Assembly (NCBI GenBank): GCA_029548805.1
Contig: JAKPMS010000010.1
Location: forward strand, 1 to 54,237
Direction: 5' to 3'
Length of the DNA: 54,237 nucleotides
DNA from: Spirochaetota bacterium
GTDB lineage: Bacteria; Spirochaetota; Spirochaetia; Treponematales; UBA12059
The notes beneath the pieces are model-generated. The model made no database searches. It was given only the letters and a program-made list of their open reading frames with translations, and was not told the origin of the DNA. The position numbers and the translations under genes were made by a program. Positions 24,373 through 28,975 of the stretch are shown here, in pieces (position 1 is the first letter of the stretch; each line of letters starts with the position of its first letter).

Positions 24373-24984
24373 ATGACCAGAAAAGAATATCTGCGTTACC
24401 TTTTCAGAAGCCCTTTTGGCTTTGTTTTAATGGTTTTGTCTTTGCTTGCCGGCTTTTTTGGCGGAATAAAGCTTGGCTTTTTAGCTGCTTTTGCATCTGG
24501 CTTTGGCATGTTTGCATTTGTTTTTATACTGGCTTCCGTTTCGGGCTTGGGTTCCCGCTTGGCTGTAAAAGAACAGGAAGCCGGGCACTGGGTAGAAACA
24601 AAAAAGGCTCTTCTTAAAACAAAAGAGGCAAGAAAGAAACTGGCCAGCCTGCGTTTTCCCGATCCGGATGTTCAGGAACTTTTGCAATTGGCCGCCATGA
24701 AGGGCTTGTCCTACCTGTCAGCCTGCGAAAGCGCAAAAACAAGAGAGCCGCGCGCCTGCAACGCTTTGTCAGAATGTCTTGAAATAAGCGATATGTATTT
24801 GCATGAGCTGGACGGCAGCTCGACAGAAAAACGCTTTAATATTGCCGACCAGGATCCTTTTCTGGATGCAAAGCATAGAACCCTGAATGCCCTGAAAGAA
24901 CGCATAAAGATAATAGACGAGGCCATTACTTTGTTGCGGGGAGGGCTCCCGTCCATGCGGATGGAAATAAAGGAAACTTTATGA
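24373..24984 (+). CDS. Hypothetical membrane protein (two N-terminal TM helices plus a helical soluble domain)
   Basis: 203-aa ORF whose stop overlaps the next start (ATGA). There is no strong RBS at 24373, so the start is uncertain. Confidence 0.6.
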   Translation: MTRKEYLRYLFRSPFGFVLMVLSLLAGFFGGIKLGFLAAFASGFGMFAFVFILASVSGLGSRLAVKEQEAGHWVETKKALLKTKEARKKLASLRFPDPDVQELLQLAAMKGLSYLSACESAKTREPRACNALSECLEISDMYLHELDGSSTEKRFNIADQDPFLDAKHRTLNALKERIKIIDEAITLLRGGLPSMRMEIKETL

Positions 24985-26714
24985 AAGGCAAAAAACATAA
25001 GCATTTCAGCCAGAACGCTGCCGCTGCCATATTTGTTTTGGCCATGCTGTTTCTGGCCAAAAATACAGCTGCAGCCCTGTCAACCGATCTTGAATCCGTT
25101 GACATAACTGTCAACCTGAGAAAAGACGCCAAGGCAGAAGTTTACTACAGCATCAAATGGCGCACCCTGTCCGGTACCATGAGCGGCTTTTATTTTGAGG
25201 GAGAGGCCTTTAAGCCTGTGTGGAATCCTTCCGCTTGCTACGCTGATCTTGATAATGGCAGTCGTGTTCCGCTTGAAATTATAGAAATGAAAGGCAACAA
25301 CAAGTATGACATAATACTTGCAGGCGGAAAGCGTTTTTCGGGCAGTGCATACTATTTTCTGAATTATGCCGGAGACTTTTCGGAAAACGGGCTGATTGGA
25401 TACACAAAGCACCCCGAGCATGGAGAGTTGGAGTTTTTTGACTGGGCGCCTGTTGAATGGGATGAGGAGCTTGACTACAGGGCTGTGCGCATTGTCTTTC
25501 CAGTAAAAGTATCCGGAGAAGTTTTAAGCAAAGAAGAAAAAGCAAATTTGCCATTGCGCACAGAAGACTGGGTAAACGCAGACAACAAAATTGATTACTA
25601 TGGCTCCCCTGGCAGTGACGGCTATTATTTGACCCTGCTTTTTTACCAGGACAAACCCGCTGCTTATGCCAGCCAAAGACTGCTTTTTTATTTTCCCCGC
25701 GGCTTTTTGGGCTTTGATGCAGAGCTGTATGAATACAGCTTTTCTTATTCCGAAGATGATATTCCTGACGACGAATACTTGGCTAACAATAGCTATTCCA
25801 ACGATTACGATAAAAAACCAGATGTTAAAGCGGCCAGGGCATGGGCAGCAAAACCCGCGGCAGCCTTTGCAGTTTTTACTGCAGTAATTGTCTTTTCCAT
25901 CCTGCTGTATCTCAGGCGTTTCAGACAGCACCAAAAAAACATAGAAGCTGTCAAGGCTATAGCTTGGGCAGGGGATTCCTGGATCCCGCCAAAACTGTAC
26001 ACGGGAAGCTATCAGGTGGAAGGTAAAATAGCAGAAAACCTGCACCCTGTAGAAGCAGCTATACTCCTGGAATTGTCCTTTCCTAGAATTGTTTCCATAA
26101 TGATGGAAGGCTTGAGCGCCCAGGGGATTATTCAAATGGAGCGAGAAGACCCTCTTAAAATTTCCATTGTTTCCGAGAAAAAAGCAGTGGACCCAATGGA
26201 AGAACGGTTTTTGGCCTCTTTCGACTCAAACGGAGAAGTCATGCCGGGCCTCTTGGCAGACTTTTTTGACCAGCTGATAGCTGAGCTGCAGGAAAAAATA
26301 TGGGATTGCGATATAGAAGCCACCAAGGCATATTACAAAAACAAGCTTTTGAGCAGCCGGGAAGAAGCCGAAAAAACCATGAGCATGGAAAACGATGAAC
26401 TTCGGGCTTATTACAGCAGAAACAGAGACCGTATTTACTGGCATAGTTATAATATAATAACGGCCAATCCGCAGCGCTTTGGCGGAATCTCCTTGCCAAA
26501 AGGCATGCAGGGCTCTTTTACCGACTTCATGCGCTCCGCATCCTGTTATTCCGGCTGTTTTTCTCCTGCAAAGGCGGTGTCCACCGTGGATGCTTGCCAC
26601 TCGGCCTGCCATAATGCCTGCCACGATGCTTGCCATTCGGCCTGTCATTCCGCTTGCCACTCGGCCTGCCATTCCGCTTGCCACTCGGCCTGTGTTTCCG
26701 GGAGTTCGCACTGA
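24981..26714 (+). CDS. Bitopic membrane protein with a DUF2207-like ectodomain and a cytoplasmic C-terminal CXXX-repeat (C-H-x-A) tail
   Basis: Signal/anchor at aa 14-33 and a TM at about aa 292-311, followed by RRFRQHQK (positive-inside). The [11 protein letters not shown]...GLSAQGII block resembles DUF2207. The C-terminus reads CYSGCFSP...[40 protein letters not shown]. Confidence 0.75.
   Translation: [577 protein letters not shown]
26595..26702 (+). repeat. Nine tandem 12-nt coding repeats (TGY-CAY-NNN-GCN) with a 24-nt higher-order unit
   Basis: Read directly: units start at 26595, 26607, ... 26691. TGCCACTCGGCC alternates with TGCCATTCCGCT, and the last unit is degenerate (TGTGTTTCCGGG). 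Confidence 0.95.
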
Positions 26715-28060: not shown

Positions 28061-28075
28061 CAAGGAGGAACGGCA

Positions 28076-28975
28076 GTGAATGATGTTTTTAAGTTTTTAA
28101 AACTTGGGCTTGTCCCCAGACTTGCATTTGCCGTTCTCCTTTATTGTGTAGCGCTTGTTGCGGAGATAATGACCGGCAATATGCTGCCCGGCTTGCCTTT
28201 CATTTTTGCCGCATGGTTTTTACTGGCCTTAAAACCGGCCAGCAACAAGCCAAAAGATATAGGCCTGGAAGAATGGCGGCCCGTAAGTGACGGAGAAGTA
28301 AACCGTATATCGGACAGTCTCCTAAGGTCCCGCAAACTTGGAAGATCTGGCAAGTCCAAAACGGCAGCTAGTGTTTTTCTTGTTGTTCTGTTGTTGTTTT
28401 TTTCTTTTGTGCTTACTGTTTCAAGAAACCCTGCCGGACCCGTTTTGTCCAAGCTGGCTTTTTTTGCAGTGCCTGGGTTGTTTTTTGGCAAAATTCGTGT
28501 TCATACACCCTTTGAATTGTCCAAAAAAATGCCCCGCATCCAGACTCTTTTGTCCCAGCCTTTAGGCAAAAACTACAGCTTTACTCCTTACCTGCGTTTT
28601 GACAAGGATACCGAGCAAAGGGACATTCCGGAAGACATAAGGCTGATGCTGGAAGCCAGGCAAAAACAGCAAGACTTTATCGGTGTTCAGTTTCAAATTT
28701 CCATCAACAATGGCGCAAACGGGCCGGTTCCGTACATGTACGCGGTGGTGCTTACCAAAGGCAGCAAAGGCACCAGTTACCAGTACTTTTCAAGGATGAA
28801 AACCAAAGGCTTTGTGCTGGAAGCAAGCGGGGGTTCAGAGTATGGTACGGTAGTTATCAGACAGAATACCGGAGGCCAGGGCTACCATACGACAGACATG
28901 GATTGTATAAGGCTGTTTGACCTTGTAATGGGGGGCTTGAAGGAGCTCGAACCAGGCAGTAAAGCCACAGCTTGA
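28076..28975 (+). CDS. Hypothetical polytopic membrane protein with a C-terminal soluble domain
   Basis: GTG start with AAGGAGG 7 nt upstream and a 15-nt gap after the rSAM gene. About four hydrophobic helices are followed by a ~150-aa soluble region. No motif recognised. Confidence 0.65.
   Translation: MNDVFKFLKLGLVPRLAFAVLLYCVALVAEIMTGNMLPGLPFIFAAWFLLALKPASNKPKDIGLEEWRPVSDGEVNRISDSLLRSRKLGRSGKSKTAASVFLVVLLLFFSFVLTVSRNPAGPVLSKLAFFAVPGLFFGKIRVHTPFELSKKMPRIQTLLSQPLGKNYSFTPYLRFDKDTEQRDIPEDIRLMLEARQKQQDFIGVQFQISINNGANGPVPYMYAVVLTKGSKGTSYQYFSRMKTKGFVLEASGGSEYGTVVIRQNTGGQGYHTTDMDCIRLFDLVMGGLKELEPGSKATA

Follow-up and report, generated by a model that had tools for sequence, protein, structure and literature searches.

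Radical S-adenosylmethionine (SAM) enzymes that act on peptides synthesized by ribosomes and modified post-translationally (RiPPs) are known almost wholly as makers of small secreted peptides. In architecture, SkfB, AlbA, CteB, PapB and SuiB combine an N-terminal PqqD-like RiPP recognition element (RRE) of ~100 amino acids (aa), a CX3CX2C radical SAM core and a seven-Cys SPASM domain, and the Cys-rich substrate of such maturases, a peptide of 40–70 aa, is encoded directly upstream. Here we describe a four-gene cassette (g1 to g4) within a 54,237-nucleotide stretch of DNA from a Spirochaetota bacterium (contig JAKPMS010000010.1; hereafter, the window) in which an enzyme of this layout, g3, likewise follows directly upon a gene for a Cys-rich partner, g2. 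Unlike the peptides of the described systems, however, this partner is a membrane protein of ~570 aa whose C-terminal tail of Cys-His repeats is invariant across phyla, and no protease or exporter is linked to it. We consider it probable that g3 is a RiPP-type maturase that modifies the cytoplasmic C-terminal tail of its neighbor g2 in situ, and does not make a secreted peptide. Literature searches returned no description of the g2-g3-g4 cassette. The type of enzymology is a known one; the novelty lies in the putative substrate, a membrane protein's tail of invariant Cys-His repeats, and in the composition of the cassette.

Other described systems share individual traits with this arrangement. 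QhpD is a radical SAM/SPASM enzyme that installs Cys-to-Asp/Glu thioethers in QhpC, a subunit of quinohemoprotein amine dehydrogenase, so that, as proposed here for g2, the crosslinked polypeptide stays in a functional protein complex and is not a secreted product (PMC10114670). By contrast with g2, QhpC is soluble, measures only ~9 kDa, is exported to the periplasm and has no repeat array, membrane anchor or g4-like partner, and the likeness is one of description, not of sequence comparison between g3 and QhpD. In borosins (OphMA), modification likewise falls on a C-terminal tail borne by a large folded protein, but there the core is fused with its enzyme, N-methylation is the chemistry and a protease later frees the peptide, whereas g3 is a separate radical SAM protein with no linked release machinery. 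A C-terminal Cys at every fourth residue beside a dedicated radical SAM gene is likewise found in TIGR04117 (‘Cys-Xaa-Xaa-Xaa repeat radical SAM target protein’) and in the ACGX-repeat system, both of which are catalogued but, to our knowledge, uncharacterized; the ACGX unit, Ala-Cys-Gly-X, resembles the Ala-Cys-His-X unit of g2. The TIGR04117 model has 98 positions and its targets are therefore short proteins, unlike g2. Against this model the g2 tail scores 10.1 bits (E = 0.66, cutoff 50), with 18 of 52 g2 orthologues matching (best E = 0.043), and g3 reaches 73 bits against the ACGX radical SAM model TIGR04340 (cutoff 400). No CXXX-repeat maturase model is among the 25 best families of g3, so any such match would fall under the 25th-ranked one (E = 2.6e-14, 53 bits). 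The link to catalogued CXXX-repeat and PapB systems that the first-pass annotation of this DNA had drawn thus holds as a resemblance but not as membership (10 versus 50 bits for TIGR04117, 53 versus 340 bits for PapB); judged by these profile scores, the cassette is a member of no curated maturase or target family.

The four genes lie on the same strand, are translationally coupled and together span 4.6 kb (24373–28975; Table 1). An ATGA overlap joins g1 to g2 (24981–24984) and a TGATG overlap joins g2 to g3 (26712–26716), while the 15-nt gap between g3 and g4 (28061–28075, caaggaggaacggca) holds AAGGAGG ahead of a GTG start; all of these coupling signatures, reported at first pass, were found again on re-reading the sequence. 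The overlaps leave no space for a separate precursor gene, and with all junctions either overlapping or just 15 nt wide, a separate small precursor gene was ruled out.

Table 1 Features of the cassette (coordinates are those of the window)
Feature	Position	Strand	Description	Basis
g1	24373..24984	+	203-aa small membrane protein	Open reading frame
g2	24981..26714	+	577-aa bitopic membrane protein with Cys-His repeat tail	Open reading frame
Pre-tail motif (g2 residues 513–529)	26517..26567	+	Candidate segment for leader-like recognition by the RRE	
Tail, A-(C-H-x-A)8-C-V-S-G-S-S-H (g2 residues 538–577)	26592..26711	+	Putative substrate of g3	
g3 (448 aa)	26714..28060	+	Radical SAM/SPASM enzyme	Open reading frame, stop 28058–28060
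g3 N-terminal domain (residues 1–100)	26714..27013	+	Predicted PqqD-like RRE fold	AlphaFold2, Foldseek
g3 radical SAM core (residues ~109–332)	27038..27709	+	C118-x3-C122-x2-C125 at 27065–27088	PF04055
g3 SPASM domain	27728..27976	+	Seven invariant Cys	PF13186
Ribosome-binding site of g4	28062..28068	+	AAGGAGG	Read from sequence
g4	28076..28975	+	299-aa membrane protein, GTG start	Open reading frame

Conservation was assessed in two sets of loci, which combine to 164. A scan with a g3 profile over one genome per species gave 176 relatives, the best 80 loci of which were inspected, and a metagenome scan for the back-translated pattern (CHxA)4C gave 120 loci, ~90 of them with true tails; ~25 of the 120 matches were discarded, being 12-nt repeats that arose by chance in frames unrelated to the tail (such as CHRACHRA). 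Being chosen by the tail itself, the metagenome set is blind to tail-less relatives. Among the 80 loci selected by the radical SAM gene, 78 have a g2 homologue by tblastn, 76 of these being readable to the repeat tail, and the two without g2 (L015 and L077) have almost no upstream DNA. Where upstream DNA is present, g2 lies directly upstream of g3; in one locus (L059) it lies downstream. Nearly all 80 genomic loci are of the window's subtype, and the tail is kept in Myxococcota and in rumen metagenome-assembled genomes, in which the rest of g2 is ~30% identical. In the tail-selected loci, each true tail ends a g2-like protein of ~500–700 aa where the open reading frame (ORF) is uncut, and a g3-like gene (30–70% identity) follows where the contig allows, usually together with a g4-like gene; no short-peptide version of the tail was seen among the ~90 true-tail metagenome loci.

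Over the combined set, the gene orders are g1-g2-g3-g4 (63 loci), g2-g3-g4 (59), g2-g3 (29), g2-g4-g3 (4), g1-g2-g3 (3), g2 only (4) and g2-g4 (2). Thus, g3 accompanies g2 in 158 of 164 loci, including loci beyond the Spirochaetes; the four g2-only loci are cut ~0.3–0.5 kb from the tail, and the two g2-g4 loci were not individually checked. In none of the loci inspected do g2 orthologues lose the Cys repeat yet keep the radical SAM gene. Clustering of neighboring ORFs across the 164 loci revealed no other widely conserved neighbor, so that neither a peptidase, a transporter nor a small precursor ORF accompanies the cassette, as the first reading of the window had suggested for a leader peptidase and an exporter; tetrapyrrole, cofactor, heme biosynthesis or Ccm genes were likewise not found conserved near it in this clustering. 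A short leader-core precursor with release or export functions was not encountered in any of these loci, the sole Cys-rich candidate being the tail of a 500–700-aa protein. The cassette occurs in Spirochaetota, Myxococcota and Acidobacteriota. Spirochaeta dissipatitropha, a named species, carries it in its genome (L201, 2639–7246), as does a 3.3-Mb contig, in both cases with overlapping starts; because the genes that flank it are different in each, we take the cassette to be autonomous.

The C-terminus of g2 reads A-(CHxA)8-CVSGSSH, with nine Cys at i, i + 4 spacing (residues 539–571), eight of them followed by His, which bears out the earlier reading of a Cys at every fourth residue in the tail of this 577-aa protein; two further Cys lie in CYSGC upstream of the repeat. 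In the 164 loci, the repeat unit has Cys in 100%, His in 95% (with Tyr mainly in the first unit), Ser (76%), Asp (12%) or Asn (8%) at x, and Ala in 99.9%. The uninterrupted Cys run comprises 8–11 residues in 163 loci and 5 in one, and the protein ends in VSG[GS]x[HR] in nearly all; the rest end in VSSGH or one of a handful of short alternatives. Column conservation reaches 0.95–0.96 over the last 37 residues of g2 versus 0.17–0.78 elsewhere in the protein. At the DNA level, the tail is an array of 12-nt period whose copies match at just 70%; its identity to the window averages 76% across loci with the peptide unchanged, and synonymous codons vary freely, including TCN to AGY exchanges for Ser. 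The constraint is therefore on the peptide and not on DNA or RNA. The tail is near-invariant at the protein level across phyla, and a pattern that recurs nearly unchanged in >160 independent loci is not chance. Its invariance and fixed length point to a structural, metal-binding or redox role; since it is the best-conserved part of g2, an intrinsic post-translational structure, probably one that binds metal or is redox-active, is a better reading of it than an antibiotic. A C-terminal sorting signal was considered for the tail and ruled out on the sequence, which contains neither a transmembrane (TM) segment nor a basic cluster.

A few loci depart from the common tail end. In L131, the tail ends ...ACVSHF and the radical SAM gene lies ~3 kb away; in L175, it runs on as VSGGGGSSGGGGSSGSW; and in one subtype (L082, L133, L139, L140 and L196), the tail end breaks the i + 4 register once.

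Hydropathy, flanking charges and an AlphaFold2 (AF2) model give g2 a signal/anchor helix (residues 8–29), an exoplasmic β-sandwich (34–239) and a TM helix (292–318), after which come RRFRQHQK, a cytoplasmic helical/winged-helix-like domain (residues ~334–500), the pre-tail motif and the tail. The last ~260 residues, tail included, are accordingly predicted to be cytoplasmic, as is g3, which has no hydrophobic segment or signal peptide. In the AF2 model, the β-sandwich has a predicted local distance difference test (pLDDT) score of ~90, whereas the tail, at 30–39, has no confident fold, as expected of a substrate or of a metal-dependent element. The Foldseek matches of this β-sandwich, ribophorin I and the N-domains of M1 aminopeptidases, reflect only a generic fold and offer no functional lead.

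The first-pass annotation had described g2 as a DUF2207-like bitopic host with a cytoplasmic tail. The predicted topology agrees, a β-sandwich followed by a TM helix is consistent with the DUF2207 family, some database sources label g2 homologues DUF2207 and 11 of 52 g2 orthologues match the N-terminal hidden Markov model (HMM) of DUF2207 (PF09972; best E = 4.4e-6); the window's own g2, however, gives no Pfam DUF2207 match, and the family assignment stands only to that extent. Scans of whole proteins and sub-domains found no Pfam or NCBIfam family for g1, g2 or g4, and profile searches of PDB sequences found no relatives of these three. A pairing of LemA with DUF2207 proteins has been noted, in which a small, N-terminally anchored helical membrane protein is encoded just upstream of a bitopic DUF2207-like protein with an exoplasmic β-sandwich, as g1 is upstream of g2 (PMC12631010), and a Streptococcus mutans DUF2207 protein has been linked to stress tolerance and biofilm (PMC10457818). 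Unlike in those pairs, g1 has no LemA match and the DUF2207 HMM match of g2 is weak or absent; a Cys-His tail, a radical SAM gene and g4 were not seen in the literature on ordinary DUF2207 genes, whose loci were not surveyed.

Protein database searches with g2 returned 11 relatives with the single sequence and 13 with a 52-sequence profile, none with a full tail: the sequences are frameshifted, shortened or short-tailed, with 5–6 Cys in P0005 and P0006 and a frameshift within the tail in P0003. Because the DNA scans gave >160 loci, we attribute this scarcity not to rarity but to the low-complexity tail, to which the word index or the database is probably blind; alternatively, repeat collapse may be common in assemblies.

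The radical SAM and SPASM assignments of g3, made at first pass from its CX3CX2C core and its C-terminus, were confirmed, with Radical_SAM (PF04055) at 80 bits (cutoff 29.5) and SPASM (PF13186) at 34 bits (cutoff 21.5). The g3 family is tight, with 119 database homologues that are 52–96% identical over the full length, the first ~110 residues included. C118-x3-C122-x2-C125 is invariant in all 119, as are an extra C129 and the SPASM cysteines C339, C353-x12-G366-x4-C371 and C408-x2-C411-x5-C417-x3-C421; by sequence, these seven SPASM cysteines would suffice for two auxiliary clusters. An AF2 model built on the 119-homologue alignment has a pLDDT of 89.5 overall and of 86–98 in the N-domain, whose predicted secondary structure is H3–11, H14–22, E27–29, E34–37, E41–44, H47–57 and H70–87. 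In this model, residues 27–87 follow the β3-α3 order of PqqD-like RREs, with two helices before it. Foldseek placed SkfB first among PDB structures (E = 4e-16) and SuiB next, the latter aligned over 445 columns, that is, over the full length with the RRE included (TMq 0.66); BlsE, viperin, PqqE, TigE, MoaA and anSME followed, with ChlB lower down. SkfB was likewise top in a profile search of PDB sequences (E = 5.6e-19), with the same N-terminal offset (109–288 versus 106–273), and the profile alignments to TigE and CteB extend into the g3 N-domain. Thus, g3 has the domain layout and the predicted fold of RiPP maturases. Formylglycine formation of the anSME type was considered and ruled out, there being no C-x-[PA]-x-R motif.

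The g3 reading frame is also open upstream through the repeat DNA, from a TTG at 26630 (26630–26713 in the window). In the homologues P0079, P0086 and P0104, N-terminal extensions (MPFGLPLG..., MSLGVPLRLRF...) are the (CHxA)n repeat read in an alternative frame; we regard these as gene-call artefacts, because conservation starts near residue 10 of the product that begins at ATG 26714.

The segment preceding the tail falls into several types. In the window's subtype it is conserved as FMxSxxC[FY]xGC, and the types distinguished overall are FMxSxxCFxGC, SDACHSACYVH, xLNVCHDACH, CYEGAF, YEHxACHS and GYDACH. The best-conserved stretch of the g3 RRE-like domain is β2-β3 (R29...K44), and β2-β3 is the usual peptide-binding edge of known RREs. 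A motif in this stretch, ILPPNxVYK, occurs in 84 of the 100 loci with FMxSxxCFxGC versus 0 of 38 in four other named pre-tail types, a covariation that, at the level of sequence, fits recognition of the pre-tail segment by the RRE. In four metagenome loci (L112, L113, L124 and L152), a pre-tail ending ...YEH[AS]ACHS and 11 CH units accompany the gene order g2-g4-g3 in place of g2-g3-g4.

We therefore propose a self-contained cassette made up of a g2-g3-g4 core, plus g1 in Spirochaetes, in which RRE, radical SAM and SPASM machinery appears to serve only the tail that a large membrane protein carries. The RRE of g3 would dock on the segment before the repeat (FMRSAxCFSGCF in the window subtype), which would act as a leader; the radical SAM site would then abstract hydrogen atoms along the repeat, assisted by the SPASM clusters. 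The outcome would most likely be Cys-centered crosslinks, namely sactionine- or ranthionine-type thioethers to the invariant Ala, to His or to the x residue. By analogy, thioethers are our leading guess for the chemistry, although other Cys chemistry is also possible; Cys-to-carbon thioethers are favored because the putative substrate is rich in Cys and because SkfB, the nearest of the solved structures, is a sactisynthase that forms thioethers. Ala and His, both invariant, are the likeliest crosslink partners or metal ligands. With neither a protease nor an exporter conserved, and with a core that is invariant instead of hypervariable, the membrane protein probably retains the product. It would be a rigidified appendage, probably metal-binding or redox-active, that works with the cytoplasmic domains of g4 and g1.

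Several points weigh against this proposal. Modification of the tail by g3 is inferred, and the topology of g2 derives from hydropathy, charge and an AF2 model and is thus predicted; the association between RRE motif and pre-tail type is confounded by shared phylogeny; and an invariant, fixed-length core is unlike RiPP cores and equally suits an unmodified metal-binding motif. The N-terminal PqqD/RRE-like region claimed at first pass stands by its predicted fold and its alignment to SuiB, but less so by sequence profile: the PqqD HMM gives weak matches in 7 of 27 g3 family members (best E = 0.0027) and no PqqD/RRE HMM matches the window's g3, whether whole or as N-domain, nor did phmmer of the N-domain against the PDB return relatives. 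Moreover, the best NCBIfam scores of the g3 core belong to the tetrapyrrole enzymes AhbD (121 bits, cutoff 500) and NirJ2 (112, cutoff 500), with NirJ at 92 (cutoff 515). RiPP maturases score below AhbD and NirJ2, and g3 stays under the cutoff of every NCBIfam model, the curated maturase models included (StsB 82 bits, cutoff 625; PqqE 81, cutoff 381; MftC 80, cutoff 265; AlbA 56, cutoff 850; PapB 53, cutoff 340). The alignments to AhbD, NirJ2 and NirJ start at g3 residue ~114, at model position 6–8, and these models therefore cover no counterpart of the ~110-aa N-domain. With AhbD and NirJ2 far below cutoff and the N-domain uncovered, it does not clearly emerge that the closest relatives of g3 are non-peptide enzymes without an RRE, an outcome that the first-pass annotation had named as speaking against its reading.

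These points bear on three other explanations, all of which we rate as less likely than modification of the tail in situ. The tail may be an unmodified, helical array of metal or Fe–S ligands, with Cys and His at i, i + 1, i + 4 and i + 5, while g3 acts elsewhere, for instance on a small molecule or, like AhbD and NirJ, on a tetrapyrrole, or uses the tail for docking or for electron or cluster donation. Invariance of Cys, His and the small Ala while x varies is the pattern of a ligand array, a fixed repeat number of 8–11 suits a structural element, and the top NCBIfam scores of AhbD and NirJ2 would agree with another substrate for g3. We nevertheless hold this to be unlikely: strict adjacency, with frequent start/stop overlap, to a gene with a Cys-rich C-terminus is the classic enzyme–substrate arrangement of radical SAM/SPASM systems, and the nearest solved folds are peptide maturases. 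Against a tetrapyrrole in particular stand the AhbD score, at 121 versus 500 bits, the lack of tetrapyrrole or cofactor genes conserved nearby and the N-terminal RRE-like domain, which the AhbD and NirJ2 models miss and which 155 of 158 g3 orthologues keep. The same heme enzymes, AhbD, NirJ2 and NirJ, being the top NCBIfam matches, and each Cys being followed by His with CX3CH spacing, the C-x3-C-H units might also be read as variant heme-c attachment motifs, with g3 making or attaching tetrapyrroles to give a cytoplasmic multi-heme appendage. This we find very hard to credit, as the HMM scores reflect generic core similarity well under cutoff and no heme biosynthesis or Ccm genes are linked; in addition, we know of no cytoplasmic c-type heme attachment system, and the addition of Cys to a vinyl group needs no radical chemistry.

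Alternatively, g2 could be a giant, borosin-like precursor. A protease whose gene lies elsewhere would then cut off the modified (CHxA)n peptide and set it free as a RiPP such as a metallophore. A C-terminal repeat next to an RRE-bearing radical SAM enzyme does mimic a leader-core layout, and C-terminal cores on large proteins have precedent in OphMA and the borosins. Yet no protease or exporter is conserved in the 164 loci, the tail belongs to a membrane-anchored protein and is predicted to lie in the cytoplasm, the core does not vary between phyla where secreted RiPP cores usually diversify, and selection also acts on the 500-aa ‘leader’, whose exoplasmic and cytoplasmic domains are conserved; we consider such a release quite improbable.

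Should modification of the g2 tail in situ hold true, RiPP chemistry would extend to the in-place tailoring of a membrane protein, probably with new Cys/His chemistry on the (A-C-H-x) repeat, and a first approach to the mechanism of DUF2207-like proteins, and of the two orphan families of membrane proteins to which g1 and g4 belong, would open up. A further and rather doubtful possibility is that g3 turns the invariant (Cys-His-x-Ala)8 tail into a new protein-derived cofactor, a crosslinked or heterocyclized Cys/His ladder that would coordinate metal ions or hemes in a row at the cytoplasmic side of a transmembrane DUF2207-like protein and serve as a redox or a metal-sensing or metal-handling device. 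If so, a so far unknown redox or metal device would be common to Spirochaetota, Myxococcota and Acidobacteriota, and the DUF2207 superfamily would gain a first functional handle. The hypothesis of tail modification in situ is directly testable owing to the compact 4.6-kb cassette, a minimal substrate of ~70 residues and the presence of the cassette in Spirochaeta dissipatitropha.

The two membrane proteins that flank g2 and g3, as proposed at first pass, were borne out by hydropathy, and both lack a Pfam or NCBIfam family. g4 has 3–4 predicted TM helices, a conserved basic cytoplasmic loop (TNKPxDQGLEEWRPV) and a C-terminal domain of ~155 aa, its soluble parts being predicted as cytoplasmic. 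As the cassette's third core component, it is present in 128 of 164 loci. Its usual place is right behind g3, as in nearly all Spirochaete loci and in that from the Holophagaceae; one subtype has it between g2 and g3. Its family is small and dedicated (306 representatives at E ≤ 0.001); among the 150 matches listed, most of the full-length ones measure ~290–340 aa and the remainder are shorter fragments. g4 itself has no Pfam match and no sequence relative in the PDB. One 457-aa database product (P0183) combines a SPASM domain (residues 68–116) with a g4-like C-terminal domain (residues 291–420) and is either a g3-g4 fusion or the product of a frameshift or read-through; both readings hint that g3 and g4 are physically linked. 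g1 consists of an N-terminal TM hairpin (~residues 14–54) and a helical domain that hydropathy predicts to be cytoplasmic. It precedes g2 in 66 of 164 loci (~40%), mainly of the Spirochaete subtype and in most Spirochaetes, and is thus an accessory gene. One g1 orthologue has a match to PF10112 (XpaC-like ‘5-bromo-4-chloroindolyl phosphate hydrolysis protein’; E = 0.007) that is too weak to use; members of that family have a similar layout of two TM helices and a helical domain.

No plasmid match was found, and a promoter and terminator scan was uninformative. Upstream of the cassette, on the same strand (20586–24330), lie genes for a DUF5312 protein (20586–22298, 433 bits), a PgeF/Cu-oxidase_4 protein (22295–23038) and an OmpA-domain protein (22951–24330). 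Conservation of these three genes at this place is confined to the ~25 loci closest to the window's; S. dissipatitropha and L202 have other flanks.

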